In this document: positions 6,387-18,790 of the stretch, in pieces
Layout: each line of letters opens with the position of its first letter
Numbering within the stretch: position 1 is the stretch's first letter
Virus record (IMG/VR): IMGVR_UViG_2870495154_000003
DNA: 60,319 nt
Source: a virus
Lineage: Duplodnaviria; Heunggongvirae; Uroviricota; Caudoviricetes
Reading direction: 5' to 3' (one strand)
Notes under the pieces: model-generated
Told to the model about the DNA's origin: nothing
Databases searched by the model: none
Seen by the model: the letters and a program-made list of their open reading frames with translations, nothing else
Position numbers and translations under genes: made by a program

Positions 6387-6918
6387 GGCACACCCCCTGG
6401 CGAATACGGGCGGCGAATACAGCAACACAACCGGACGGGCAGCGGTTACGCGCTTCACGTTCCGTCCAGGCGGTGACGTGGATGATTTGATGGTCTGACG
6501 CGCCAAAGATGATAAAGCGCCAGAGAAAGGCGGTTTGAGAATGTACAAGGGTAGGGATAGTAGCCATGTTGGCAGCCTCCTTTGACAGTGAAGAATTTCC
6601 ACCGCAGGAAACGCCAATTTCGCTGGCGGTGGACTGAACGGGGTTGGCGTAACCGGCGTCAAAGGGAACCGGCGCTTCCGAAGAAGCCCCCGCCCAGCCC
6701 ACCATAACTTTGATGTGAGCGAATGCGGACGATAAAAAAGACGCTGGCGCGTCATATATCGCCTTTGACATTTCCAGGACGCCAATCCCGGCACCAGATT
6801 TTGCTGGTGCGGATAAATCATAGCCCTGGCTTGCAGTGGCGATCAACTGGTTTTTTACACCCGCTTTATTCAGGTTGTGCGAGTCCCGCCCTTGCGGGTG
6901 TGTGGTATGATTTCTCAT
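6379..6918 (-). CDS. Hypothetical Ala/Gly/Ser-rich protein (179 aa; alternative 62-aa start at 6567 with AGGAGG SD)
   Basis: 3' part of the 429-aa ORF 6379..7668; in-frame ATG at 6916..6918 with GAGG SD, just beyond the divergent operator region. Confidence 0.3.
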
Positions 6919-7888: not shown

Positions 7889-8307
7889 ACAAAAACCTAC
7901 ATAAAAAATTACGTATATAAACTTTTCTCTTAGCTGTAGATATATGAGATCGGATATTACTTAGATTCTTTTTTCACCTCTTAAATTAAAAACACAACCT
8001 TGCTAAAGGCTTTGTTCGCTAAGGTTCGTAGAAGCTCGTTAGTGTTTAAAATCGTGTCACGAGTTTTTAAGCGATGCAACAAAAAATGTCGTTATTTGGC
8101 ATTACGCTTGAATTATCTCATTAAAAACAAATAGATAAACCATCAAGTGTTGGAACAATCAAGAAACAGAGAATAAAAGTTCAGAAGAAGACATTCCAAT
8201 TTTTTGATGGTTGACATATATAAAGCGAAGATATTTGCAGATATTTTCCGATATTCTACGATTTATTCACGGCTGTAATCTCTTAAAGAAAAAACAGCCG
8301 TAATTTG

Positions 8308-9546
8308 TCAAGAATTTTGGGTGTAAATTCGCGGGGTCATAACAACGATTTTTTCATCATTGTTCTGGAGAAGCTCGAGACGGTCTACCCATAGATTAAG
8401 AGCATCACGTTTTGCATCAAGATAACGGGAGTGGTTATAGACTCGTTGCATCCCCGGCATCTGGTGGGCGGTAAGCTGCTCGACAATATGCGGATCCACG
8501 CCTAAATCGTTCAGCATGGTTGTAAATGTGTGCCGGATGTCATGCAACGACCAGGGGGCTTGATTAATGCGTCTGTGTGCCGTTCTTCCGTACTCTGCTA
8601 CGGATGATTGCCCTTTCAGTTCTCCAAGCAATAAGCCCGTGTGCCTGTTCTTCTCCACCAGCTTCATGACAAACGGCAAGATCGCTTCCGGTATTGGCCT
8701 GAATATTGCTACCTTCGTTTTGCTGTGTTCTTTCGGCACAGTCCAGAGCATTTCTTTAAAATCCCATTCCTGAACCTCGGAGCGTCTTAGCTCAGTGGTA
8801 CGGCATCCAAAGACAATCAGAAGGCGAATTAAGGCGCTGTAGTACGGCGGGAAAATTTTTTCATCCAGTGCGCGGAGTAGCTCGCCAAGCTCCTTGTTTG
8901 TTAGCACTCGCTCGCTTATTTCTGCTTTTTTTCCCACATCACCTACGACCATATCATCAAGAACGTTACTGACGGCGTAGCGACGTTTACGGCAGTACTT
9001 AAGCGCCTGCTTGCATACCTGCAACAAAAAGCCGGCTGATACCGGATTACGCTTAGCAAGCTGGTCAAAACAGGCCAGCCAGTGGCGTAGCTCGCATTTA
9101 TCCAGCGGCATAGCACCAATCTGGCTGATTATGTGCTTATTGATACGGCTTTTCAGTGATTCGTGGTCAGTGCGCTTTTCCTTCGCATACGACTCAAGCC
9201 AGTAAGTGAGCGCGTCCTTAACCGTCACAGGGGCTAACGCTTCCTGCACTGTGTGATTAAGCTCATGGCGTGGATTTTTCCCCTCCGCCAGCCAGGCGCG
9301 ACACTGTGCCGCTTTTTCCCTGGCTGCTTTCAGGCTCAGATCGGGATAGTTGCCCAGTCTCAGGCGTTCCGGTGATACCTGCCTGCCAGTTCCGGCCCTG
9401 TAAGTGAAATACCAGGTTAACAGGCCGCTGGTGGAATGTCTTACGCTAAGATTGCCACCGTCATTAAAAAAGGCGTTTTTTGTGGTTGGTGATCCGCTTA
9501 ATTTTCGTAAAAGAGTGTCGCTAAGTCTATGAATTGCGCTGCTCAT
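8308..9546 (-). CDS. int: Tyrosine recombinase / integrase (412 aa)
   Basis: C-terminal catalytic region with R...HxxR...Y signature (RTAHRR..., HDIRHTFTTML..., MQRVYNHSRYL); P4-like length and layout. Confidence 0.9.
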   Translation of the reverse strand: MSSAIHRLSDTLLRKLSGSPTTKNAFFNDGGNLSVRHSTSGLLTWYFTYRAGTGRQVSPERLRLGNYPDLSLKAAREKAAQCRAWLAEGKNPRHELNHTVQEALAPVTVKDALTYWLESYAKEKRTDHESLKSRINKHIISQIGAMPLDKCELRHWLACFDQLAKRNPVSAGFLLQVCKQALKYCRKRRYAVSNVLDDMVVGDVGKKAEISERVLTNKELGELLRALDEKIFPPYYSALIRLLIVFGCRTTELRRSEVQEWDFKEMLWTVPKEHSKTKVAIFRPIPEAILPFVMKLVEKNRHTGLLLGELKGQSSVAEYGRTAHRRINQAPWSLHDIRHTFTTMLNDLGVDPHIVEQLTAHQMPGMQRVYNHSRYLDAKRDALNLWVDRLELLQNNDEKIVVMTPRIYTQNS

Positions 9547-9573
9547 GTTTCGCGTTTCCGGTCATCAAAATTA

Positions 9574-9645
9574 ACTACACCATTGACTACACCGTGCATC
9601 GTACAAGGGCAAACCGTGACGAACAATATCGAACAACCGCGAACA
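9574..9645. promoter_or_regulatory. Direct repeats upstream of int: ACTACACC x2 (9574, 9586) and CGAACAA x3 at 10-bp phasing (9619, 9629, 9639)
   Basis: Read directly from the sequence, 30-100 bp upstream of the int start codon. Confidence 0.4.
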
Positions 9646-9987
9646 AAGATCAACACGCTTTAATCATTATCATTTTCCGGCTATCCGTCATGAAGCTGGT
9701 GGATGATCTGCGTGGTGATTTCCACCATTCAGAGCAGGGGCGGTCATCATGACCATGCCATAACAAAAACCCCATATTCGTGGTTTTTCTGTGTCGGGGC
9801 TATTCTGCTGTTGCCGTGCTGGTGGATATTCTCCGGTATGCGGCTCCCCATATCGGCATCAGGCCCACCAGCGTGAAGCGTTTTTCATTTTTCGCGGGTA
9901 TAAAAAATCGATGGGGCTGGCAGTCCTGAAGACGTCAGGGTACAGAGATTTGACCCGCCCCTCCCTGTGCATGAGCACAATAAGTAA

Positions 9988-10011
9988 CCGAAGGCGGAAT
10001 TCCGCCCTCGG
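9988..10011. other. Perfect 14-bp palindrome GGCGGAATTCCGCC within an imperfect 24-bp inverted repeat
   Basis: Read directly from the sequence, in the non-coding region between the 124-aa ORF and int. Confidence 0.5.
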
Positions 10012-10073
10012 TACTTACATATGAGAAACGATATTTCTTCCACCGATACCCTTTATTTGGGTATTGCGAGTAA

Positions 10074-10152
10074 GCCCCAAAATCTGGGTGTTACTCTTAC
10101 TACCCAAACTACGGGTAGTTTCCGTAGTTTCATGGTCGAGTTGCAAATCTGC
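10074..10152. other. Cluster of three consecutive stem-loops (9-bp stem AAACTACGG / CCGTAGTTT; 6-bp GTTGCA / TGCAAC; 7-bp AACGCAA / TTGCGTT)
   Basis: Read directly from the sequence; 50-130 nt beyond the stop of the minus-strand ORF 10203..10577. Confidence 0.45.
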
Positions 10153-10202
10153 AACTCACCCACCAGCCAACGCAATTTTGCGTTATCGGGAATATCAGCA
10201 AG

Positions 10203-10577
10203 TTACCGCCGCAGTCGTTCCGGCTTCTTCCACTGGTAAGTATTTTTCGCGCTCTCCCTCCGTTGTTGAGAACGGCGACGGTATGCCAGCAACTCAAGGA
10301 CTCTGGTTCGTATGTTGCGCATATCCACGCCGTTAAGCTCAATACCATCACGGCGCATCACCTCAGCAACAACACGCGCGTAATTTTCGGCTATCACGCT
10401 GTCCGGCTGCGTGGCCTCCTGTTCGCCAGCCTGCTGGCTGATTCCGGTAATACTGCGGATTATCCCGAGCGCTTCGGTCTCGGTCATGGTCATGGCCTCC
10501 ATAGTGATGGCGGGTCCTCCTTGTGGGGTGCCCTGCCACGGGGCGGGAGCATCGCGGAAAAAGGCTAGTTTTTGCAT
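10203..10577 (-). CDS. Hypothetical protein (124 aa; probable true start at 10485..10487 giving 94 aa)
   Basis: ORF in track, last gene downstream of TerS on the minus strand. GGAGG SD is best spaced (8 nt) for the third in-frame ATG (MTETEALGIIR...). Confidence 0.4.
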   Translation of the reverse strand: MQKLAFFRDAPAPWQGTPQGGPAITMEAMTMTETEALGIIRSITGISQQAGEQEATQPDSVIAENYARVVAEVMRRDGIELNGVDMRNIRTRVLELLAYRRRSQQRRESAKNTYQWKKPERLRR

Positions 10578-10738
10578 TTTTATTCGTCATCACCACCAAT
10601 GCAATATATTGATATGACTTGATGTTTTATTTTTCGGTGTCGATTTCGATTGTTTTTTGTTCATCACTGACGCATAACGCCCACCAGCGCAACGCTGAAA
10701 GCCAGTCAGTAAACTGGCTTAGGTCATTGTGCACTACG

Positions 10739-11281
10739 TTACTTGTCTTTATCCGACTGAAACTTATCAGGCACATTTCCGGTAGTTTCCATCAGATAAT
10801 CGGACAGCATTCGCGGGATGTTTTCATCAAGTTTTGTGCATGCGTTACAGGCTCTGACAACTTCTTTTTTCAGGCCATCCAGCATGGCGGGGGTCATCTG
10901 TGGGAAGCTCCTTTGCATAGTAAGCGGCAGGCTGCCCATGATTGAAGAAATCTGACTCGCCAGTTTTGAAAGCGCATATATACAAAATTCCGTACTAATC
11001 ACATCGCCGCGTTCGCGCTCGTTTTTAAGCTCCTGCGCCTCCGCCTGCGCTGTCAGCAATCTGATCCTGACTCGCAAAAGCTCATCATTATCAATCTCGC
11101 CTTTGTCGTCTGTAATCTGGTTAATTGCATTGCTAACCCGATTGTCTATTACGCTGGCAACATCATAAAACGCCTCGCGGCCTTTACGTTCAACGGGAGT
11201 CACTCCCCACTTGTCGAACGCTGTCGCACTTACACGGCAGCTTTGCGCCATGTTTTTTTTGTTCATCAGGTGCGATTTCAT
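10739..11281 (-). CDS. Terminase small subunit, Nu1-like (copy B)
   Basis: Identical translation to 252..794. Confidence 0.8.
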   Translation of the reverse strand: MKSHLMNKKNMAQSCRVSATAFDKWGVTPVERKGREAFYDVASVIDNRVSNAINQITDDKGEIDNDELLRVRIRLLTAQAEAQELKNERERGDVISTEFCIYALSKLASQISSIMGSLPLTMQRSFPQMTPAMLDGLKKEVVRACNACTKLDENIPRMLSDYLMETTGNVPDKFQSDKDK

Positions 11282-11482
11282 CAATATCCCCACTTAAGTA
11301 ATGTTTCAGGTTGGTGTATTGGCTTTATCTTTTCCTTTTTATTCATAGAGATAGAGCGAACAACAAAACCACCACCAGCACCCGAAAAAGGCTCATAAAT
11401 AGCGAAAACCCGCGAGGTCGCCGCCCCGTAACCTACCGGATCGCCGGAAAGGACCCGCCAGCCAGAACGGGCCCTAATTTCA

Positions 11483-11866
11483 TCAACCAATCAACTTATA
11501 GCGACCATCCCGTGCATTGCGACGTACACGCTCAATCTTGAGGCATAGCGCCGCATCTGGCTTTTTTGGGACAGGTACGCGGCAATATTCAGAAGCTCGA
11601 GGAATATTGTTTATCCAGTCGATCACTTCACTTAAATACCAGGCCTTACGCCCTTTCGTAACCTGTACGCGTTCGGGGAACTCTCCGCGAGCCTCAAGGT
11701 TTAGCAATGTGCGACGGCTAAGGGTAGTAAGTTCCATCACCTGATTCATATCAACAAGGCGTTCACTTAAACGCATTTTGTCAGCAATAGCCTTTAATTC
11801 CTCTACTGCTGGATCCGGATACATCATTTCGGCAATTGGCTTAAGGTCATTGTAATGATTCTGCAT
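11483..11866 (-). CDS. AlpA/Xis-like HTH protein (copy B)
   Basis: Identical translation to 996..1379. Confidence 0.6.
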   Translation of the reverse strand: MQNHYNDLKPIAEMMYPDPAVEELKAIADKMRLSERLVDMNQVMELTTLSRRTLLNLEARGEFPERVQVTKGRKAWYLSEVIDWINNIPRASEYCRVPVPKKPDAALCLKIERVRRNARDGRYKLIG

Positions 11867-11877
11867 TGTATCCCCCT

Positions 11878-12217
11878 TTACACACGAGCCAGCGGCTGAA
11901 CAGAAATACCTGAGCCAACAAACGCGGCAACCTTTGCCGACAGTTCTTTTACAGACTCAGGCCAGTTCAGAGCATCAACATTTAAAACACCTGTCTTATA
12001 AACCTGTGCCTGTGTTTTTTTCGCTGTGTCGATTTGTACAGCGGAAACATAAACCGCTTTACCTACGCTCGAACCATCCCATACCACCAGTGCACCTGTT
12101 GCATCTTCCTGCATCAGTGGCGTAAATGCAGGAATTACCCTTTATTAGCTGAAAATATCCCAGCGTAGTCACCAGTGCTTCAGTGCCAGCCATGAGTTCA
12201 GTGTAATGAGTAGCCAT
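11878..12217 (-). pseudogene. gpD-like decoration gene, frameshifted in copy B
   Basis: Two 1-bp deletions in C-runs (near 12139 and 12160) relative to other copies; the track shows only a 78-aa ORF 11878..12114. Confidence 0.6.
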
Positions 12218-12225
12218 TGCTCCCC

Positions 12226-13271
12226 TTAGCCAATGCGAACGGTAACAAAACGATTGATGCGGGCCGGTATTGGCTGTGGTGCTGAATGTGTCTGCACATA
12301 TTCAATAGCCGGATCACCAGGCACAATATAGTTTTTCGGTGCAAGTTCGGCTTTAGTCAGCCCCATTCGGATTAGCTCCGGATCCTGAATACCGCCATAG
12401 GCGACAATCCCTGAAGAGCCGTATTGCCAAGCACCATCAAATCAGGATCAAGGAAATGTTTTTCTGTTCCGTCCTCGTCGGTATAACGCCCGCTGTAAAC
12501 AACAATCGCAACATCGCCCATATACCCTTTAAAACTCACCGAATCACCAAGGTCTTTAAGGGCCGTTTCCAGTTCGGAATTAGAACCACGACGGGTATCC
12601 AAAGCCTCTTTTATCGCTCTGAATGAACGGTATTTCTTCCATACATTACCACCCATAATGATGATATTAGTGACGCCCTCACTAAATTCTGCGTAGCTCT
12701 CAATATCATCATTTGGATCAAAAGTTTCTTTATCCTTACCTGACCACTCAGTACCGCCAGACTGAGTGATGATATTTTGTGGTTTTATATTCCAGTCCAG
12801 CTCATAACGTTCAATACCATCGCCCTCAATGATATTTTTCCCCGTTGTGATTGCCTGAACAGCAAGCCATTCAATACGTGCACGAATAGCTTTAGCCTGA
12901 TTTACAATCGCCTGTTTAACTTTAATATTACGCGCCCCAAAAGCATTGTATTGCTCAGGTGACACACCAGCAGGGCGCACAGCTAACTTATTTGGATCAA
13001 TGCTGCTTTTCGGCTTCATATAACCTGGACGAATTGTTTTTGATTCGTATCCCTCATCTCGTGAAACTTTACTGCCCACCATAGGAGAGCAAAACGCCGC
13101 GATCGGGATATTTGGATCGTCGATCGTATCAAGAATAATGTCTCTCGATTCAAACATTACCGAGCGAGTGAAAAACAAACTGGTAAACAACGCATTTAAT
13201 TTTTTTTGCACATCTTCAGCATTAGCCACCTGCACAAGCTGTGTAGGCGAATATAAATCAACCATACTCAT
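12226..13271 (-). pseudogene. gpE-like major capsid gene, frameshifted near its 3' end in copy B
   Basis: 1-bp deletion in a C-run near 12419; ORF 12372..13352 has an altered C-terminus (...ALQGLSPMAVFRIRS) versus other copies. Confidence 0.6.
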
Positions 13272-13482
13272 CCTCTTTACATTCATTACAAATAATTGTG
13301 AATATATTCTATTACCGATGTCTGCTATGCGAATACATGCAACCAAGTGCAATGTTGTATAAAATATGCCGTAACAACTTCAGTGCTGATAATTCGTGTT
13401 AATGTATTTACTTCCTTTGGTCGGGATTTATGTAGCATGCCGGAAAATCTATTTTTTTCCGGCATCTTTTTGTTTGCAGAAT

Positions 13483-13905
13483 TTAAAACGGTATATTATC
13501 GCCGTACGGATCATCATTCCCCGACTGTTGTTTTGCCCTGTTCAGTGCGTCAGTGGCCTGCCCCTGCTGGCCTTTTTTGCCGCCCGGTCGCGCCGTTCGC
13601 GCACTGATTACACTGTCTGCGATAACCTGCCAGCCCTGCCGCGTTTCGCCGTTCTGGCCTGTCCACTGGCTTACCTGCATGTTACCCGCCACGCTCACCA
13701 ATTCGCCTTTGTGGTGTTTTGCCAGTGCGTCGGCCTGTCTGCCAAACGCCAGGACGGATAACCACATCGTCGCCGTTCCGTCATCTGCCTGGCTGCACGG
13801 CAGGGGAACCGCCATACTCGCCATCGCCATTTGTGTCCCTTTGCTGGTGGTCTTTAACTGCGGGTCAGCCACCAGCCGCCCGTAAGCCGCTATCTGTGCT
13901 GTCAT
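13483..13905 (-). CDS. ssb: Single-stranded DNA-binding protein (copy B)
   Basis: Identical translation to 3000..3422. Confidence 0.8.
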   Translation of the reverse strand: MTAQIAAYGRLVADPQLKTTSKGTQMAMASMAVPLPCSQADDGTATMWLSVLAFGRQADALAKHHKGELVSVAGNMQVSQWTGQNGETRQGWQVIADSVISARTARPGGKKGQQGQATDALNRAKQQSGNDDPYGDNIPF

Positions 13906-14147
13906 GCTGTCTGCTCTCCGGTTTTAACGTTGATGGTTGTCACCTGTTCCGCTTCGGCAATCTCCCGTTCTGTCAGCGTGGCAAAGTTTGCAGCTGCCGT
14001 TGTCATGAATGAGCTAATCAGTTCGGGATGTGCTTTCGCATATCCTTCCCCGGCGTTGCGGTCGATGATTTTTATCGACACCCTTAACCAGTGTTCCGTC
14101 AAATCAAGGGCGTGCGATTGTGATTTTTTTGTGTGCTTCGCTGTCAT
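13902..14147 (-). CDS. Hypothetical protein 81 aa (copy B)
   Basis: Identical translation to 3419..3664. Confidence 0.45.
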   Translation of the reverse strand: MTAKHTKKSQSHALDLTEHWLRVSIKIIDRNAGEGYAKAHPELISSFMTTAAANFATLTEREIAEAEQVTTINVKTGEQTA

Positions 14148-14434
14148 AGGCTTTATCTCACAGCAGTAAATTAAAATTTTTGCGTTTTAACCCTTCACCT
14201 GTTCACCTTTTGATATTTTATCTTTTAATTCATAATGTTAAGGGGTGAACAGTTTCACAAAAACTATTCACCAACTGTTCACCACTGTTCACCCTTGAAG
14301 CTCAATAAACAATCAAAAAGGTGAACAGTGAATAGTTTGGTGAACAGTTCATAAATAACTGTTCACCCTATAACATACTGATACAAAAGATATTTATGAC
14401 AGGGTGAACAGTGGTGAACAGTTATTCCATAAGT

Positions 14435-16252
14435 TTAATTTTTGCTATCGTCATTAGTGACCGATACACATGATGGCATCCAGTCTTCTGATTCCTCCGT
14501 CAGTGTCACGTTTGAACGCAAACCGTGCTTCGTTTTCCGTTTCATATACTCCCTGCCATATTCCGCCATTGCCCCCGGCATATCTTTACCGAAGCGCGTC
14601 AGTGTTACAGGTTTACCAAACCCATGTGCCTTCATATAAGCCAGATAGGCATGATAGAGATACCTGCGCGGGCTGAATGGCACAATTTCAGCATTACCCA
14701 CTAACAGGCCATCACACATTACCGACGCCATGAGATAGCCGCAGAAGTCCACCAGCGAATCACCTTCACGCTTTATCGCGAGTGCTTCTTCTGATTTCTG
14801 CTGCTCATATAAAAGGCGTCTGGCTTCGTCCTGGTCAGCAAACCGTGTAAGCAGATGACGAATCACTACCGCCAGCTCACCTTCTATTTTTTCCGCCAGC
14901 ATTGAATCGCGTTCGTTCTCCGGTACAACTTCCGAAAAATTGAATATCACCCGACGGCGCGAGATCCCCCCACTGCGGTCACTGAATGACATAGCGTTAT
15001 TGTTAACCGCCAGCACTACTGCCGGGATACGCGTTGAATATGGGGCTTTATGTTTTGGGTCGATTGCCACCTTGTCACCGCCTGTAATAGCCTTAATTCC
15101 CGCCCCATCACCAGCGTAGCGGGTCATATCCGGCATGATAATCAGCGAAAAGCCAACCACTAACGCGCGTTCCCTTGCATCTTCCAGCGCCTTCATGCTC
15201 GCTGATACTGTATTAGCCTTACCCGCCAGCATGGTGCAAATCTCCGCCATCACGCTTTTACCACTTCCCCCTGGACCTGTTACCTCAATGAATAACTGCC
15301 AGTCGTACCGGTTCGCCAGCACCATGAATAATGCAGCCAGTACGCGATCCGCCTTGCGGTCATTCTCAGCCACCGAACGGCGTAACCACTTCCAGAAATT
15401 CGGCGCATGTGTTGCCAGCGTTTCCCCCTCTGCTGGTGGGCTGAAAGGTAATTCACTGGCAATTAACAACCAGTCGTTTTTGTTATGCTCCCGAAAATTA
15501 CCTGTTCTGGTATCAAATACCCCGTTACTGAATCCAATCAGGTTACGGGCTGTATTCCCCATTACAGGCAAACTTAACTTCATGGTATCGACCGCCGATT
15601 TAATGGCGTTCTGCGAATAGCTGATCTCCGCATCAATGAAAATCTGTGCCATAGCTCGCTGTAATTCTTTATCCTGTACTGGCTCCCATACAACGCCGTT
15701 GTAATGGTGAACAGTGTCAGAGTCAGCATGAATCGCCAGTTCACCGCCATAATGTGCCAGGAGAACTTCGCCGCGTTGACTTGCTCCCATCTGGTTAAGC
15801 GCCAGTGATGAAGCGTTATCGTCTTTTACCCGCTCTTTTTTCTTTACAGGCAGTTCAACTACCTTTTTCTTTTCCGCCAGCTCTCCCCGCTCACGTTCCA
15901 GATATTCGCGCCAGTTCTCCCGTTTCTGGCTGTGCATTCCTTCAGGGTAATAATCAGCATCCCTGACACCTGCCGCTGCCAGTTTCTGCCCGATGGTATT
16001 AACAAGCCCCGGACGCAATAACCCCGCCTGGTAGAGACGCACGCGATAGCGTCCGTCCGGTACGATTTGCAGGTTGTCCAGTTCGGCAAGTTGTTGCTCT
16101 CCAAGCCAGACAGGTGGCACGTTATCGCCAGCCAGTCGCCCGTCCTGTTCCTGCCACTGCGTCGCATGTGCCCACGCATCACTACCCGCAAAAATGATGA
16201 CTTCCGTCATTTTGTCACGCGGCTGGTGTTTTAAATTTGGCGCTTTTTTCAT
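14435..16252 (-). CDS. Primase-helicase (copy B)
   Basis: Identical translation to 3952..5769. Confidence 0.85.
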   Translation of the reverse strand: MKKAPNLKHQPRDKMTEVIIFAGSDAWAHATQWQEQDGRLAGDNVPPVWLGEQQLAELDNLQIVPDGRYRVRLYQAGLLRPGLVNTIGQKLAAAGVRDADYYPEGMHSQKRENWREYLERERGELAEKKKVVELPVKKKERVKDDNASSLALNQMGASQRGEVLLAHYGGELAIHADSDTVHHYNGVVWEPVQDKELQRAMAQIFIDAEISYSQNAIKSAVDTMKLSLPVMGNTARNLIGFSNGVFDTRTGNFREHNKNDWLLIASELPFSPPAEGETLATHAPNFWKWLRRSVAENDRKADRVLAALFMVLANRYDWQLFIEVTGPGGSGKSVMAEICTMLAGKANTVSASMKALEDARERALVVGFSLIIMPDMTRYAGDGAGIKAITGGDKVAIDPKHKAPYSTRIPAVVLAVNNNAMSFSDRSGGISRRRVIFNFSEVVPENERDSMLAEKIEGELAVVIRHLLTRFADQDEARRLLYEQQKSEEALAIKREGDSLVDFCGYLMASVMCDGLLVGNAEIVPFSPRRYLYHAYLAYMKAHGFGKPVTLTRFGKDMPGAMAEYGREYMKRKTKHGLRSNVTLTEESEDWMPSCVSVTNDDSKN

Positions 16253-16542
16253 TTCTGCTCTCTCCACGCGGCAATCATGTTTTTCAGTTCCTGTAGTTTT
16301 TTATCCACACGTGACACATGGTTATTTCTGGAAAGCGGGATTTCCCGCCTGAATCTGCTAATAAAGATCTCCACGTTCAGCGAACTATGAAATGAATAGC
16401 CATCACGAATAAAATAAACACGGTCAAACATCAGTTCTTTTACCGTTACTCTGTTACCGTTCTTATCCAGATAAATAGCGCCGGGGATAATTTTTGGGTG
16501 TGCATAACCGCTGGCAGTCAAGCCAGATAAATATGTTCTCAT
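16249..16542 (-). CDS. Hypothetical protein 97 aa (copy B)
   Basis: Identical translation to 5766..6059. Confidence 0.5.
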   Translation of the reverse strand: MRTYLSGLTASGYAHPKIIPGAIYLDKNGNRVTVKELMFDRVYFIRDGYSFHSSLNVEIFISRFRREIPLSRNNHVSRVDKKLQELKNMIAAWREQK

Positions 16543-16548
16543 GATTAT

Positions 16549-16869
16549 TTATCCCCGATTTGAATCAGTATTCGCTTTCTTTATGGCATTTAATGCATCT
16601 GTGGCATTTTCAATGGTGCACCGTAACGAAATATCAAACTGCCCAAGCATTGCCAGTAACAAGCCAATATTCCCCATGTCAATGCGCATAGCCTTTTCGT
16701 CATATTCCTCATTTTCTGACGCATGCCACATCAGGCTACCAATTGACGCAACAGCCATTGATATATTGTCAGTAGCCCCATCCGCAGCGGAATAAACCTT
16801 TTTAGCAATATCATGCTCACAGTTAAAATGCGGATTAATCAGGTACTGGTAATTTGACATATCAGGCAT
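16549..16869 (-). CDS. Hypothetical protein 106 aa (copy B)
   Basis: Identical to 6066..6386. Confidence 0.45.
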
Positions 16870-17401
16870 GGCACACCCCCTGGCGAATACGGGCGGCGAA
16901 TACAGCAACACAACCGGACGGGCAGCGGTTACGCGCTTCACGTTCCGTCCAGGCGGTGACGTGGATGATTTGATGGTCTGACGCGCCAAAGATGATAAAG
17001 CGCCAGAGAAAGGCGGTTTGAGAATGTACAAGGGTAGGGATAGTAGCCATGTTGGCAGCCTCCTTTGACAGTGAAGAATTTCCACCGCAGGAAACGCCAA
17101 TTTCGCTGGCGGTGGACTGAACGGGGTTGGCGTAACCGGCGTCAAAGGGAACCGGCGCTTCCGAAGAAGCCCCCGCCCAGCCCACCATAACTTTGATGTG
17201 AGCGAATGCGGACGATAAAAAAGACGCTGGCGCGTCATATATCGCCTTTGACATTTCCAGGACGCCAATCCCGGCACCAGATTTTGCTGGTGCGGATAAA
17301 TCATAGCCCTGGCTTGCAGTGGCGATCAACTGGTTTTTTACACCCGCTTTATTCAGGTTGTGCGAGTCCCGCCCTTGCGGGTGTGTGGTATGATTTCTCA
17401 T
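16862..17401 (-). CDS. Hypothetical Ala/Gly/Ser-rich protein (copy B)
   Basis: Identical to 6379..6918. Confidence 0.3.
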
Positions 17402-17600
17402 AGCGACCTCGATACTATCGTTATCGTTGGTGGTTAGAAGCCCCGTTACTGCTCCAACAGTGCGGGGTTTCGTCGTTTCTGCACCTTGCATCAACAAGGT
17501 GTTGAACACCAATGTAAACTCAGGTGTTGAACACGTCAAGTGTTGAACACTTGTTTTTTTTCCTGCATACTGCATTTGTTTTTTGTGAGGGGTACACAAC

Positions 17601-17780
17601 ATGGCGACAAAAGCAGTAAACGCAAAATCACAAACAGTTGCGGCAAGGGTTCCGCATGAAGTTATGAACAATGTTGAGGCGGTAAAAATGCCTGGTGAAA
17701 GTACAGGGCAATTTGTAACAGCAGCATTAAAGCGAGAAGTTGAATACCGCCAGCGACGCAAGGCTAAAGAGCAAGAATAA
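17601..17780 (+). CDS. RHH-like small regulator (copy B)
   Basis: Identical to 7118..7297. Confidence 0.55.
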
Positions 17781-17837
17781 TCACTATCAGCGCTGTGGTG
17801 TGAGGTACTCCGGCGCATTGCTTTACAGGTCGGCACT

Positions 17838-18047
17838 ATGAGCAAAAAATACCTATCCACTGAAGAGATTTTCGCAGAACAACGAAGATTGCTTTTACAG
17901 AGCATTGTTGCACGCCAGAAAGAAAAGGCACACGCTAAACAAATGCCACCAAATACAGAACCAGCGCCTACAAAATTTGCGCTTGATGAGTTTCTCAATA
18001 AACAGCCCCGGGTAATGAAAGCTAACAGGAACCGCCCACCAGGCTGA
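17838..18047 (+). CDS. Hypothetical protein 69 aa (copy B)
   Basis: Identical to 7355..7564. Confidence 0.4.
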
Positions 18048-18161
18048 TCACATTGCCCACCAGCCAGCAAATCGCTATGATGGCTGGGCTTATGTTTAGT
18101 GTATTCCCACTGGCGACCTCTGATCCGGGTCGCCTTTGTTTTATGTGTCATATGCCCCCCT

Positions 18162-18371
18162 TTACGCTGCCTTGCCTGAATTAATGCGATCCCGGCTTTT
18201 AACCCATTCCATAACCTCGGACAGCAGCCAACCTACAGAACGACCGCCCAGATTACGGCGTGACGGGAAATTCCCTTTTTTCTCCAGTTCATAGCGTGTA
18301 GTGCGACACACTCCAGTTAACTTACGACATTCATCCTCACGGATTACGCGATCTTCATTTATTTCACGCAT
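18162..18371 (-). CDS. alpA: AlpA-family regulator (copy B)
   Basis: Identical to 7679..7888. Confidence 0.8.
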
Positions 18372-18790
18372 ACAAAAACCTACATAAAAAATTACGTATA
18401 TAAACTTTTCTCTTAGCTGTAGATATATGAGATCGGATATTACTTAGATTCTTTTTTCACCTCTTAAATTAAAAACACAACCTTGCTAAAGGCTTTGTTC
18501 GCTAAGGTTCGTAGAAGCTCGTTAGTGTTTAAAATCGTGTCACGAGTTTTTAAGCGATGCAACAAAAAATGTCGTTATTTGGCATTACGCTTGAATTATC
18601 TCATTAAAAACAAATAGATAAACCATCAAGTGTTGGAACAATCAAGAAACAGAGAATAAAAGTTCAGAAGAAGACATTCCAATTTTTTGATGGTTGACAT
18701 ATATAAAGCGAAGATATTTGCAGATATTTTCCGATATTCTACGATTTATTCACGGCTGTAATCTCTTAAAGAAAAAACAGCCGTAATTTG

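Follow-up and report, generated by a model that had tools for sequence, protein, structure and literature searches.

The spacer joining the ends of a concatemeric Escherichia coli phage satellite as a probable mosaic of cis-acting elements

The IMG/VR virus record IMGVR_UViG_2870495154_000003 (positions 1-60319, 60,319 nucleotides in all; hereinafter the window) carries a 656-bp spacer at 9547-10202, bounded by the start of an integrase gene, int (9546, minus strand), and by the stop codon of a gene for a phrog_1561 family protein (10203, minus strand). The original prediction for this stretch, made from the sequence alone, took it to be about 650 bp without a convincing open reading frame (ORF), in agreement with RefSeq, which annotates no coding sequence in the 100%-identical chromosomal copies. 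The direct repeats, palindrome and dense run of hairpins in the spacer are real and non-random. The spacer also holds a helper-type cos site, which was overlooked in that prediction. We consider it likely that the spacer is the end-joining region of a concatemer of an EcCICFT073-type phage-inducible chromosomal island (PICI), and that it is a mosaic of five cis elements.

The ORF table of the window is periodic every 10,483-10,487 bp, and the window comprises about 5.75 head-to-tail units of 10.49 kb. Alignment of the four full units revealed only six differences, each of them a single-base indel within a run of C or A, which is the pattern of long-read error and not of biological divergence. 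In the first full unit four C residues are absent (12137, 12158, 12221 and 12408), and the decoration and capsid frames are broken there (326 aa versus 375 aa; 78 aa versus 113 aa); these absences too are probably long-read errors. The two ends of the window are equivalent to unit positions 10484 and 7892.

Each unit codes for a 412-aa tyrosine integrase, a 69-aa AlpA, Icd/Ash-like genes, a DUF4222 protein, a D5-type primase-helicase, an SSB, a lambda gpE-like capsid protein, a gpD-like decoration protein, a second AlpA-family protein (127 aa), a 184-aa Nu1-like small terminase (TerS) and the 94-aa phrog_1561 protein. The int gene (8308..9546, minus strand) encodes a tyrosine recombinase with an N-terminal arm-DNA-binding domain (Pfam PF13356, E = 1.2e-16; PF00589), and an identical Int protein adjoins cspD in many E. 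coli chromosomes. EcCICFT073 itself is characterized by capsid and decoration homologues, two cos sites, and a lambda-like cosQ/cosN with a foreign cosB (PMC6092414, PMC6739421). The same gene plan is present here, with int-alpA, a primase/replication module, the capsid and decoration homologues, and a lambda-like cosQ/cosN combined with a foreign cosB. The window is a concatemer of an EcCICFT073-type PICI, a satellite of E. coli.

Two families of direct repeats lie in the int-proximal part of the spacer, both as originally described. The first, ACTACACC, is present twice (9574-9581 and 9586-9593) and nowhere else in the repeat unit, giving 10 matches in the window against 1.0 expected. It is contained in 12-bp units, ATTAACTACACC and ATTGACTACACC, which occupy 9570..9593 on the plus strand and make up the repeats of the int-proximal arm. 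The second, CGAACAA, occurs in three exact copies at 9620, 9630 and 9640, i.e. with a 10-bp phasing; these are the repeats of the int-distal arm (9620..9646, plus strand), the first copy being recombinant.

To define the attachment site we used BLAST against the complete E. coli genomes (5426), in which integrated copies of the island are found at 99.8-99.9% identity, and compared one such copy (L001) with the empty site of strain EF7-18-51 (L005). Segments 9619-18789 and 8300-9636 of the window map, at 99.9%, to the two ends of an island lying between clpS and yljB/cspD. The empty site has a single ATGATAAATAACTATCATCTAT, whereas in the occupied chromosome this 22-mer is found twice, 10,700 bp apart, the two copies sitting 119 and 94 bp outside the positions of the 8-bp sequence ACGAACAA. 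The integrated island is thus 10,700 bp long and the core has the form ATGATA-N6-TATCAT. Accordingly, the att core is ATGATAAATAACTATCAT (core pattern ATGATARATAACTATCAT), an inverted repeat as expected for core-type sites, and its target lies between clpS and cspD. The absence of a tRNA-like core from the spacer, remarked on earlier, agrees with these results, since ARAGORN finds neither a tRNA nor a tmRNA in the window and the target is intergenic. The comparison with empty sites that had been proposed for locating the core did locate it, though not where it had been expected: ATGATARATAACTATCAT is absent from the whole window, the 656-bp spacer included, even when 3 mismatches are allowed. 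Furthermore, none of the 5426 genomes carries the flank of about 190 bp without the island, and these ~190 bp therefore belong to the island.

We examined in this light the alternative that the spacer is an intact, functional attP with its core in the CGAACAA tract and its crossover in the 18 bp ACGAACAATATCGAACAA. Its appeal stems from the two BLAST segments against the integrated copy, which overlap by 18 bp at 9619-9636 in a manner resembling an att core. However, the sequence truly shared is the 8-bp ACGAACAA only, the junction on the cspD side reading ACGAACAAGAGCGAACAA and that on the clpS side ACGAACAATATCGAACAA. The empty site has neither of these, and on either side the duplicated target is located 94-119 bp farther outward. 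Read together with the empty site, the two junctions rule out the 18-bp overlap as the att core. With the 190-bp flank never occurring apart from the island, and with four independent circular or tandem junctions carrying an arm-core-arm arrangement, we regard an intact attP at this place as highly improbable.

The intact arrangement is seen in four independent records (L006, L056, L068 and L069). One is an IMG/VR contig (L006); another, NZ_CP148328.1, is a 10,790-bp circular 'plasmid' that is an excised satellite with the same Int and a different capsid module; the others are contigs from Logan and from an ENA metagenome, with 868 bp and not 656 bp between the phrog_1561 gene and int. In these the int-proximal arm consists of ATTAACTACACC ATTGACTACACC, 25 nt, and ACGAACAA GAG CGAACAA, plus a core-adjacent CGAACAC CCG CGAACAC, while the int-distal arm consists of ATTAACTACACC ATTAACTACACC, 5 nt, and ACGAACAA TAT CGAACAA CCG CGAACAA. 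Thus, a module of two ACTACACC and two to three CGAACAA copies flanks the core on both sides in all four records, and in related satellites, which have three different cores in all, both types of motif keep the same distance to the core. We accept the repeats as attP arm sites on the strength of their presence on both flanks and of this conserved spacing from three cores; they are arm-type repeats, and the arm-binding domain of Int (PF13356) is consistent with their being bound by protein. The earlier proposal that the spacer holds attP therefore stands for the direct repeats as arm sites, with Int and AlpA as candidate binders, but not for the crossover core, which has been deleted from between the two arm modules.

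The lesion itself can be delineated precisely from the junctions of the integrated copy, the empty site and the intact attP. A segment of 213 bp holding ATGATAAATAACTATCAT is missing, the endpoints of the deletion being 8-bp direct repeats of ACGAACAA, and the joint (9619..9626, plus strand) fuses the int-proximal arm on its left to the int-distal arm on its right. The fused-arm string recurs in every unit (9619, 20102, 30589, 41076 and 51563), and all five junctions are identical. It has no exact match in IMG/VR, JGI metagenomes or GTDB genomes, and junction-spanning BLAST queries gave no contiguous match in complete E. coli genomes or PLSDB plasmids. As the junction does not resemble the att core, it is not a secondary Int site, and with the core lost from between the arm modules the copy in the window cannot function as attP. 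The core-less junction is explained most simply if, while the molecule was replicating, its arm repeats underwent slippage or illegitimate recombination. A form of this kind is unable to integrate by the canonical reaction; nor would Int be able to resolve it into monomers, in keeping with its being seen as a long concatemer.

An origin of this junction in long-read assembly or in-vitro amplification, with the real molecules having an intact attP, is possible but quite unlikely. It would accord with the homopolymer indels that alone distinguish the unit copies, a signature of long-read error, and with the junction being found in no other collection while the canonical one was found four times. 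Against this, the five junctions in the window are all identical, and the lost sequence is a unique segment of 213 bp between 57-bp modules of ~80% similarity, which is not the type of repeat that long-read assemblers collapse. Moreover, the joint coincides exactly with an 8-bp direct repeat, which is where a genuine deletion by slippage or illegitimate recombination would be expected to fall.

A sensitive BLAST search of 9547-10202 against 50,697 phage records recovered matches to a single segment, 9883-9965, at 90-94% identity. These lie at the very ends of the linear records of SfII, ST64B, SfV, SfI and SfIV, or on the annotated 'cos-site' of phiP27, with vB_EcoM-720R4 also among the matches. 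In phages and E. coli prophages the matching segment is situated between the HNH endonuclease gene and the P27-family terS; the homology covers 83 of the 125 bp of this intergenic region, starting and stopping inside it, and the flanks in the satellite are unrelated. The segment (9883..9965, minus strand) is hence a copy of a P27/SfV-type cos region. From the phiP27 cos-site and the SfI end, a 10-nt cohesive end is predicted at 9913..9922 (minus strand), GGGGCTGGCA on the plus strand and TGCCAGCCCC in the phage orientation. It is identical in 9 of 10 bases to that of SfI, for which 5'-TGCCCGCCCC-3' was determined experimentally (PMC3636060). The minus-strand phage orientation suggests that packaging from this cos would proceed toward int.

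Satellites that differ from the present one in capsid module and in integration site have this cos too, likewise flanked by the int-distal arm and the hairpin block, and many of them have the G-to-T variant of the cohesive end in common. This speaks for maintenance of the site and against a scar in decay. In the relative from E. coli Nissle 1917, position 9872 is joined straight to 10159 with a single copy of CCCACCAGC; thus, 9873-10158, encompassing the cos, the palindrome and the hairpin block, behaves as an insertion/deletion cassette of ~290 bp bounded by this 9-bp repeat.

Every unit additionally has a lambda-type cos (11382..11458, minus strand), recognized from its match to lambda-type phages, with a cosQ, a perfect lambda cosN GGGCGGCGACCT (11415-11426) and a diverged cosB. 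Near-identity to lambda-type phages extends over about 63 nt, taking in cosQ, cosN and the bases that immediately follow, and stops where the R sites of the phages begin. This cos is directly upstream of the gene for the satellite's own TerS and is co-oriented with the P27-type cos. The TerS (10739..11293, minus strand; 184 aa; Pfam PF07471, phrog_57) is of the lambda Nu1 type and can be aligned along its entire length, at 34% identity, with a TerS from a lambda-type phage. In PDB sequence searches neither this protein nor the 127-aa protein matched RppC: the former is a full-length Nu1 homologue and the latter belongs to the AlpA family (8c3t). Relatives have other combinations, for example two inverted lambda cosN sites, as in Nissle 1917 (L008; 6765 on the plus and 7643 on the minus strand), or a lambda-type together with a P27-type cos. 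NZ_CP148328.1, which we considered as a candidate with the P27-type cos only, was rejected as such, as a lambda cosN with 1 mismatch is present.

The Chi sequence GCTGGTGG is present 72 times in the window against 2.07 expected, an approximately 35-fold enrichment amounting to ~13 copies per unit (in one unit at 9427, 9695, 9818, 9865, 10160, 10681, 11372, 13843, 13869, 14749, 15432, 18057 and 19138). Four copies fall within 9547-10202. Those at 9695..9702 and 9818..9825, like the one inside int (9427..9434), are on the plus strand. The minus-strand copies at 9865..9872 and 10160..10167 are part of the left and right CCCACCAGC direct repeats that bound the cos/hairpin cassette, as defined by the repeat and the Nissle junction. 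Leftward of the P27-type cos there is one wrongly oriented Chi followed by three on the plus strand, and rightward there are three on the minus strand; this switch of polarity recurs in L006, L051 and L056. These orientations are those that would be recognized by RecBCD entering from either end cut at the cos. Chi protects linear and rolling-circle DNA from RecBCD in E. coli, and a role in protecting the linear or concatemeric DNA of the island is suggested by this pattern. A Pfam scan, which covered part of the ORFs, detected no Gam-like inhibitor of RecBCD.

These data allow us to weigh the view that 9883-9965 is a non-functional recombination scar from an HK97/P27-type prophage, with packaging proceeding via the lambda-type cos only. 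It would accord with the island having a lambda-type TerS adjoining the lambda-type cos and neither an HNH nor a P27-type terminase, and it sits well with a region that is visibly mosaic, with a cassette that is absent from the Nissle 1917 relative and with a cohesive end that is substituted relative to SfV/SfI. On the other hand, the homology is confined to the phage intergenic region, with both sides of the nick kept at 90-94% and unrelated flanks, and the position of the cos is retained across satellites that differ in capsid module and integration site. The widespread G-to-T variant does not look like random decay, and the Chi polarity switches at the P27-type cos and not at the lambda-type cos. 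Satellites carrying the cos of their helper also have precedents in P4 and SaPIbov5 (10.1101/2022.09.08.507074). We therefore find the scar unlikely and favor the use of the P27-type cos by a helper terminase, as its homology to the phage cos would predict.

The remaining part of the cassette is occupied by secondary-structure elements. The perfect palindrome GGCGGAATTCCGCC reported in the original prediction exists, one base away from where it had been placed (9993-10006 instead of 9994-10007). With 0 occurrences expected by chance, it forms the center of a 37-nt GC-rich hairpin (9981..10017, no strand assigned; DNA fold z = -5.3). On the minus strand its stem has 11 pairs, 8 of them GC, followed by a weak T tail, TACTTATTGT, making it the only terminator-like site of the region (a count of 1 against a shuffle expectation of 0.9). 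It may end transcription of the late operon before the cos. The same palindrome is found on the opposite side of the hairpin block in cf-PICI-type relatives.

The run of consecutive hairpins noticed earlier is also genuine, although its number and extent had been underestimated: there are more than three, spanning ~10045-10184, namely 10045-10065, 10068-10096, 10106-10130 (alternatively 10099-10119), 10138-10157 and 10169-10184, with individual z-scores of -2.9 to -7.1. Folding of 9975-10205 gave z = -9.7 for the minus and -8.5 for the plus strand, and 0 of 200 shuffles were as stable. The idea that palindrome and hairpins are att, Int or AlpA sites does not hold; both are in the separate mosaic cassette with the helper-type cos. 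Within the run, four stem-loops at 10040..10162 (no strand assigned) compose a conserved multi-hairpin block, which is near-invariant in 38 IMG/VR loci despite differing surroundings, the left flanks being of at least three unrelated kinds and the right flanks of several. The block is present in 708 of the 5426 E. coli genomes (13%) and has no match in the 50,697 phage records; a literature search found no paper on its sequence. Without exception it follows a phrog_1561 gene at a distance of 37-250 bp on the 3' side, and this holds across at least four body plans, namely that of the window, that of a cf-PICI-like island located at tqsA, a type with a ClpP-capsid fusion, and a satellite within a prophage capsid gene. 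The block is thus a discrete, conserved and satellite-specific element, and it could be either a protein-binding site or an RNA element. The short hairpin that follows it just 3' of the phrog_1561 stop, ACGCAA-TTTT-TTGCGT (10169..10184, no strand assigned), has stems that differ in relatives and yet pair (ACGCAA/TTGCGT, GTGCA/TGCAC and CCCA/TGGG).

Several satellites (L020, L028 and L042, from IMG/VR) have two copies of the block ~435 bp apart, with three TAACCCGCAA iterons and a cosN-like GAGGCGGGCACTCC in the spacer between them. A related satellite in E. coli STEC711 (L058; NZ_CP041416.1, 3107982-3114103) adjoins a truncated prophage major capsid gene and has the same module of capsid, decoration, AlpA-like, TerS and phrog_1561 genes as the window; its helper-embedded configuration resembles that described in PMC10111431. 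A cf-PICI-like island at tqsA is also carried by a 32,560-bp E. coli 'plasmid' (L057; CP088587.1) together with ~18 kb of chromosomal genes (mlc, asr, mdtIJ, pntAB), and this record is either a mis-assigned chromosomal fragment or an excised/amplified chromosomal segment.

The block, alone or with the palindrome, might be a structured RNA, either a small regulatory RNA or an element in the 3'-UTR (untranslated region) of the late operon acting in processing, stability or termination; we hold this as a tentative alternative of modest probability. It would account for the very strong predicted folding on both strands, the near-invariance across mosaic flanks with a fixed place 3' of the phrog_1561 gene, and the pairing of 10169-10184 despite different stem sequences. 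Compensatory changes likewise occur in helix 1, where all the double changes of the block are located (3 of 39 pairs), and the covariation score of 0.070, versus 0.058 for shuffles, is reached by 16 of 500 shuffles. However, helices 2-4 are almost invariant and give no covariation signal, and the only diverged copy found, that of L058 (78% identity), has helix 2 broken and half of helix 3 deleted. The counts of G.U versus A.C pairs show no strand bias once one invariant pair is set aside, there is no promoter-like site within the region, and invariance at the sequence level suits a protein-binding DNA site at least equally well. Nor does Rfam recognize any family in the region (9450-10350), either at the gathering threshold or at E <= 5. 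This bears also on the immunity RNA of the P4 kind that had been entertained for the spacer: Rfam places the C4 antisense RNA (82 bits) and isrK (75 bits) at 6622-6709 and 6734-6810, on the minus strand in each unit, so that the relevant locus is 6622-6810 and not the spacer. These RNAs are upstream of or overlap the Icd/Ash-like ORFs, forming a P1/P4-style immunity module.

The last gene of the late operon, that of the 94-aa phrog_1561 protein (10203..10487, minus strand; phrog match), yields an AlphaFold model of three helices with a pLDDT of 66, too weak for a fold search. Between it and terS, the stretch 10508-10672 shows 86-88% identity to the right-end region of the lambdoid phage mEp460 and its relatives, where it is partly annotated as 'putative late gene regulator'. 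A third cos considered on the basis of this homology was rejected, as the homology stops ~30 nt short of the phage terminus. On its minus strand, just upstream of the phrog_1561 gene, a good sigma-70-like promoter is discernible by eye (TTGCAT, 17 nt, TAAAAT). The terS stop is directly followed by an intrinsic terminator of canonical form, AAGCCAGT-ttactg-ACTGGCTT with T's after it (10698-10720, minus strand), which suggests that the phrog_1561 gene may be a separate transcription unit. Overlapping the 3' end of this gene is a motif, GAAAATATCAAC(C/G)(A/G)GTTA(C/G)(C/G), of which the window has one copy (10185-10210), and the Nissle (L008, 6230-6420) and cf-PICI-type (L007, 6230-6380) relatives have three copies ~80 bp apart; it may be a protein-binding site.

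Taken together, these elements suggest the following model. Int, with its N-terminal arm-binding domain, and probably AlpA or host factors, would assemble a recombination complex on the arm repeats, and the intact core ATGATAAATAACTATCAT, with one arm module on each side, would recombine with its identical counterpart in the clpS-cspD interval; in the present molecule the arm modules have instead recombined with each other at the 8-bp ACGAACAA, deleting the core. The complete helper-type cos (9883-9965), copied from HNH-dependent cos phages of the P27/SfV/HK97-like kind, would be cut within the concatemer at 9913-9922 by the TerS-TerL-HNH terminase of a helper, which, judging from homology and orientation, would package toward int. 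The lambda-type cos (11415-11426), with the island's own Nu1-like TerS and private cosB, would serve lambda-like helpers, and with two types of cos the island appears to be equipped for two unrelated terminase families. RecBCD entering from either cos-cut end would soon meet the flanking Chi sites, and the linear or concatemeric DNA would thereby be protected. The GC-rich palindromic hairpin might terminate transcription of the late operon ahead of the cos, and the 120-bp multi-hairpin block linked to the phrog_1561 gene might act as a protein-binding site or RNA element.

Certain observations weigh against this reconstruction. The cohesive end differs by one base from that of SfV/SfI, with a second difference 5 nt outside it, and the island has no HNH and no P27-type TerS of its own, so that use of the second cos would be wholly helper-dependent. 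In at least one host genome of the island, CREC-532, the P27-type cos is present in no further copy, and the ends of the window coincide with neither cos, so that the sampled DNA was not virion DNA cut at a cos. The core-less junction was observed once only and may be a rare product of replication slippage without a biological role. Likewise, the polarity argument for Chi is based on ~7 sites, and calling the palindrome a terminator depends on a weak T tract.

Apart from the hairpin block, the components are of known kinds: an arm-dependent attP that a deletion has disabled, a cos derived from a helper, a cos of the lambda type whose cosB is private, and Chi. Less ordinary are the combination, within a single PICI, of cos sites belonging to two unrelated terminase families, the switch of Chi polarity at the cos, the unique core-less concatemer and the unannotated conserved block. 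A bolder proposal would unite these in a two-helper satellite that combines a lambda-type cos served by its own TerS with a separately acquired, exchangeable cassette in the att-proximal spacer, made up of a P27/HNH-type cos for packaging by unrelated HK97-like helpers, the palindrome and the ultra-conserved 120-bp block. In this view the block, together with the phrog_1561 gene, would be an undescribed satellite-specific cis element (protein-binding site or RNA) common to at least four body plans, and the core-less, Chi-armored concatemer would be a real replicative form, non-integrating and not resolvable by Int, to which recombination of the attP arm repeats with each other gave rise; we regard this as rather unlikely in its entirety.

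The present analysis resolves the spacer into mapped cis elements, namely the attP arms and core, the clpS-cspD target and two cos sites, for a family found in hundreds of E. coli genomes. The question of why some PICIs have two cos sites was posed explicitly in the 2019 paper on Rpp (PMC6739421), and the two cos of different terminase families offer a testable answer, in which one island would be served by two helper classes. The clustering of Chi at the cos suggests how a satellite lacking a Gam-like inhibitor of RecBCD might protect its linear DNA, and with the 120-bp block, 13% of complete E. coli genomes contain a highly conserved element that lacks annotation. A lesson for annotation pipelines is that a head-to-tail satellite contig need not hold a usable attP.

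Known systems provide parallels for most of these features. As in the attP of the lambda/P4 type, an Int with an arm-binding domain is combined, in the intact element, with helically phased direct-repeat arms flanking an inverted-repeat core, and as in P4 int immediately adjoins attP. The differences are that in the window the core and its surroundings (213 bp) are deleted and the arms fused, and that the target is the intergenic clpS-cspD region, whereas P4 targets a tRNA gene. Properly oriented GCTGGTGG near double-strand ends is what is seen in protection from RecBCD by Chi; here the density is ~13 per 10.5 kb with a polarity switch at the satellite cos, and the function would be analogous. 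P4, with the cos of P2, and SaPIbov5, with that of the HNH-dependent phi12/phiSLT, resemble this island in having a near-exact helper cos in a satellite without the relevant terminase. In the case of SaPIbov5-type helpers a terminase with HNH packages the satellite, and homology suggests the same here; unlike these, the present island is from E. coli and its P27-type cos is one of two heterologous cos sites. The closest likeness is to the EcCICFT073-type cos PICIs (PMC6092414; PMC6739421), with which it shares int-alpA at one end, a primase/replication module, gpE-like and gpD-like homologues, two cos sites, a lambda-like cosQ/cosN joined to a non-phage cosB, and concatemeric replication in units whose size corresponds to a fraction of the helper genome. 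It departs from them in having a full-length Nu1-like TerS instead of a match to RppC, and in that its second cos is not lambda-like but of the P27/SfV type, located in the att-proximal spacer.

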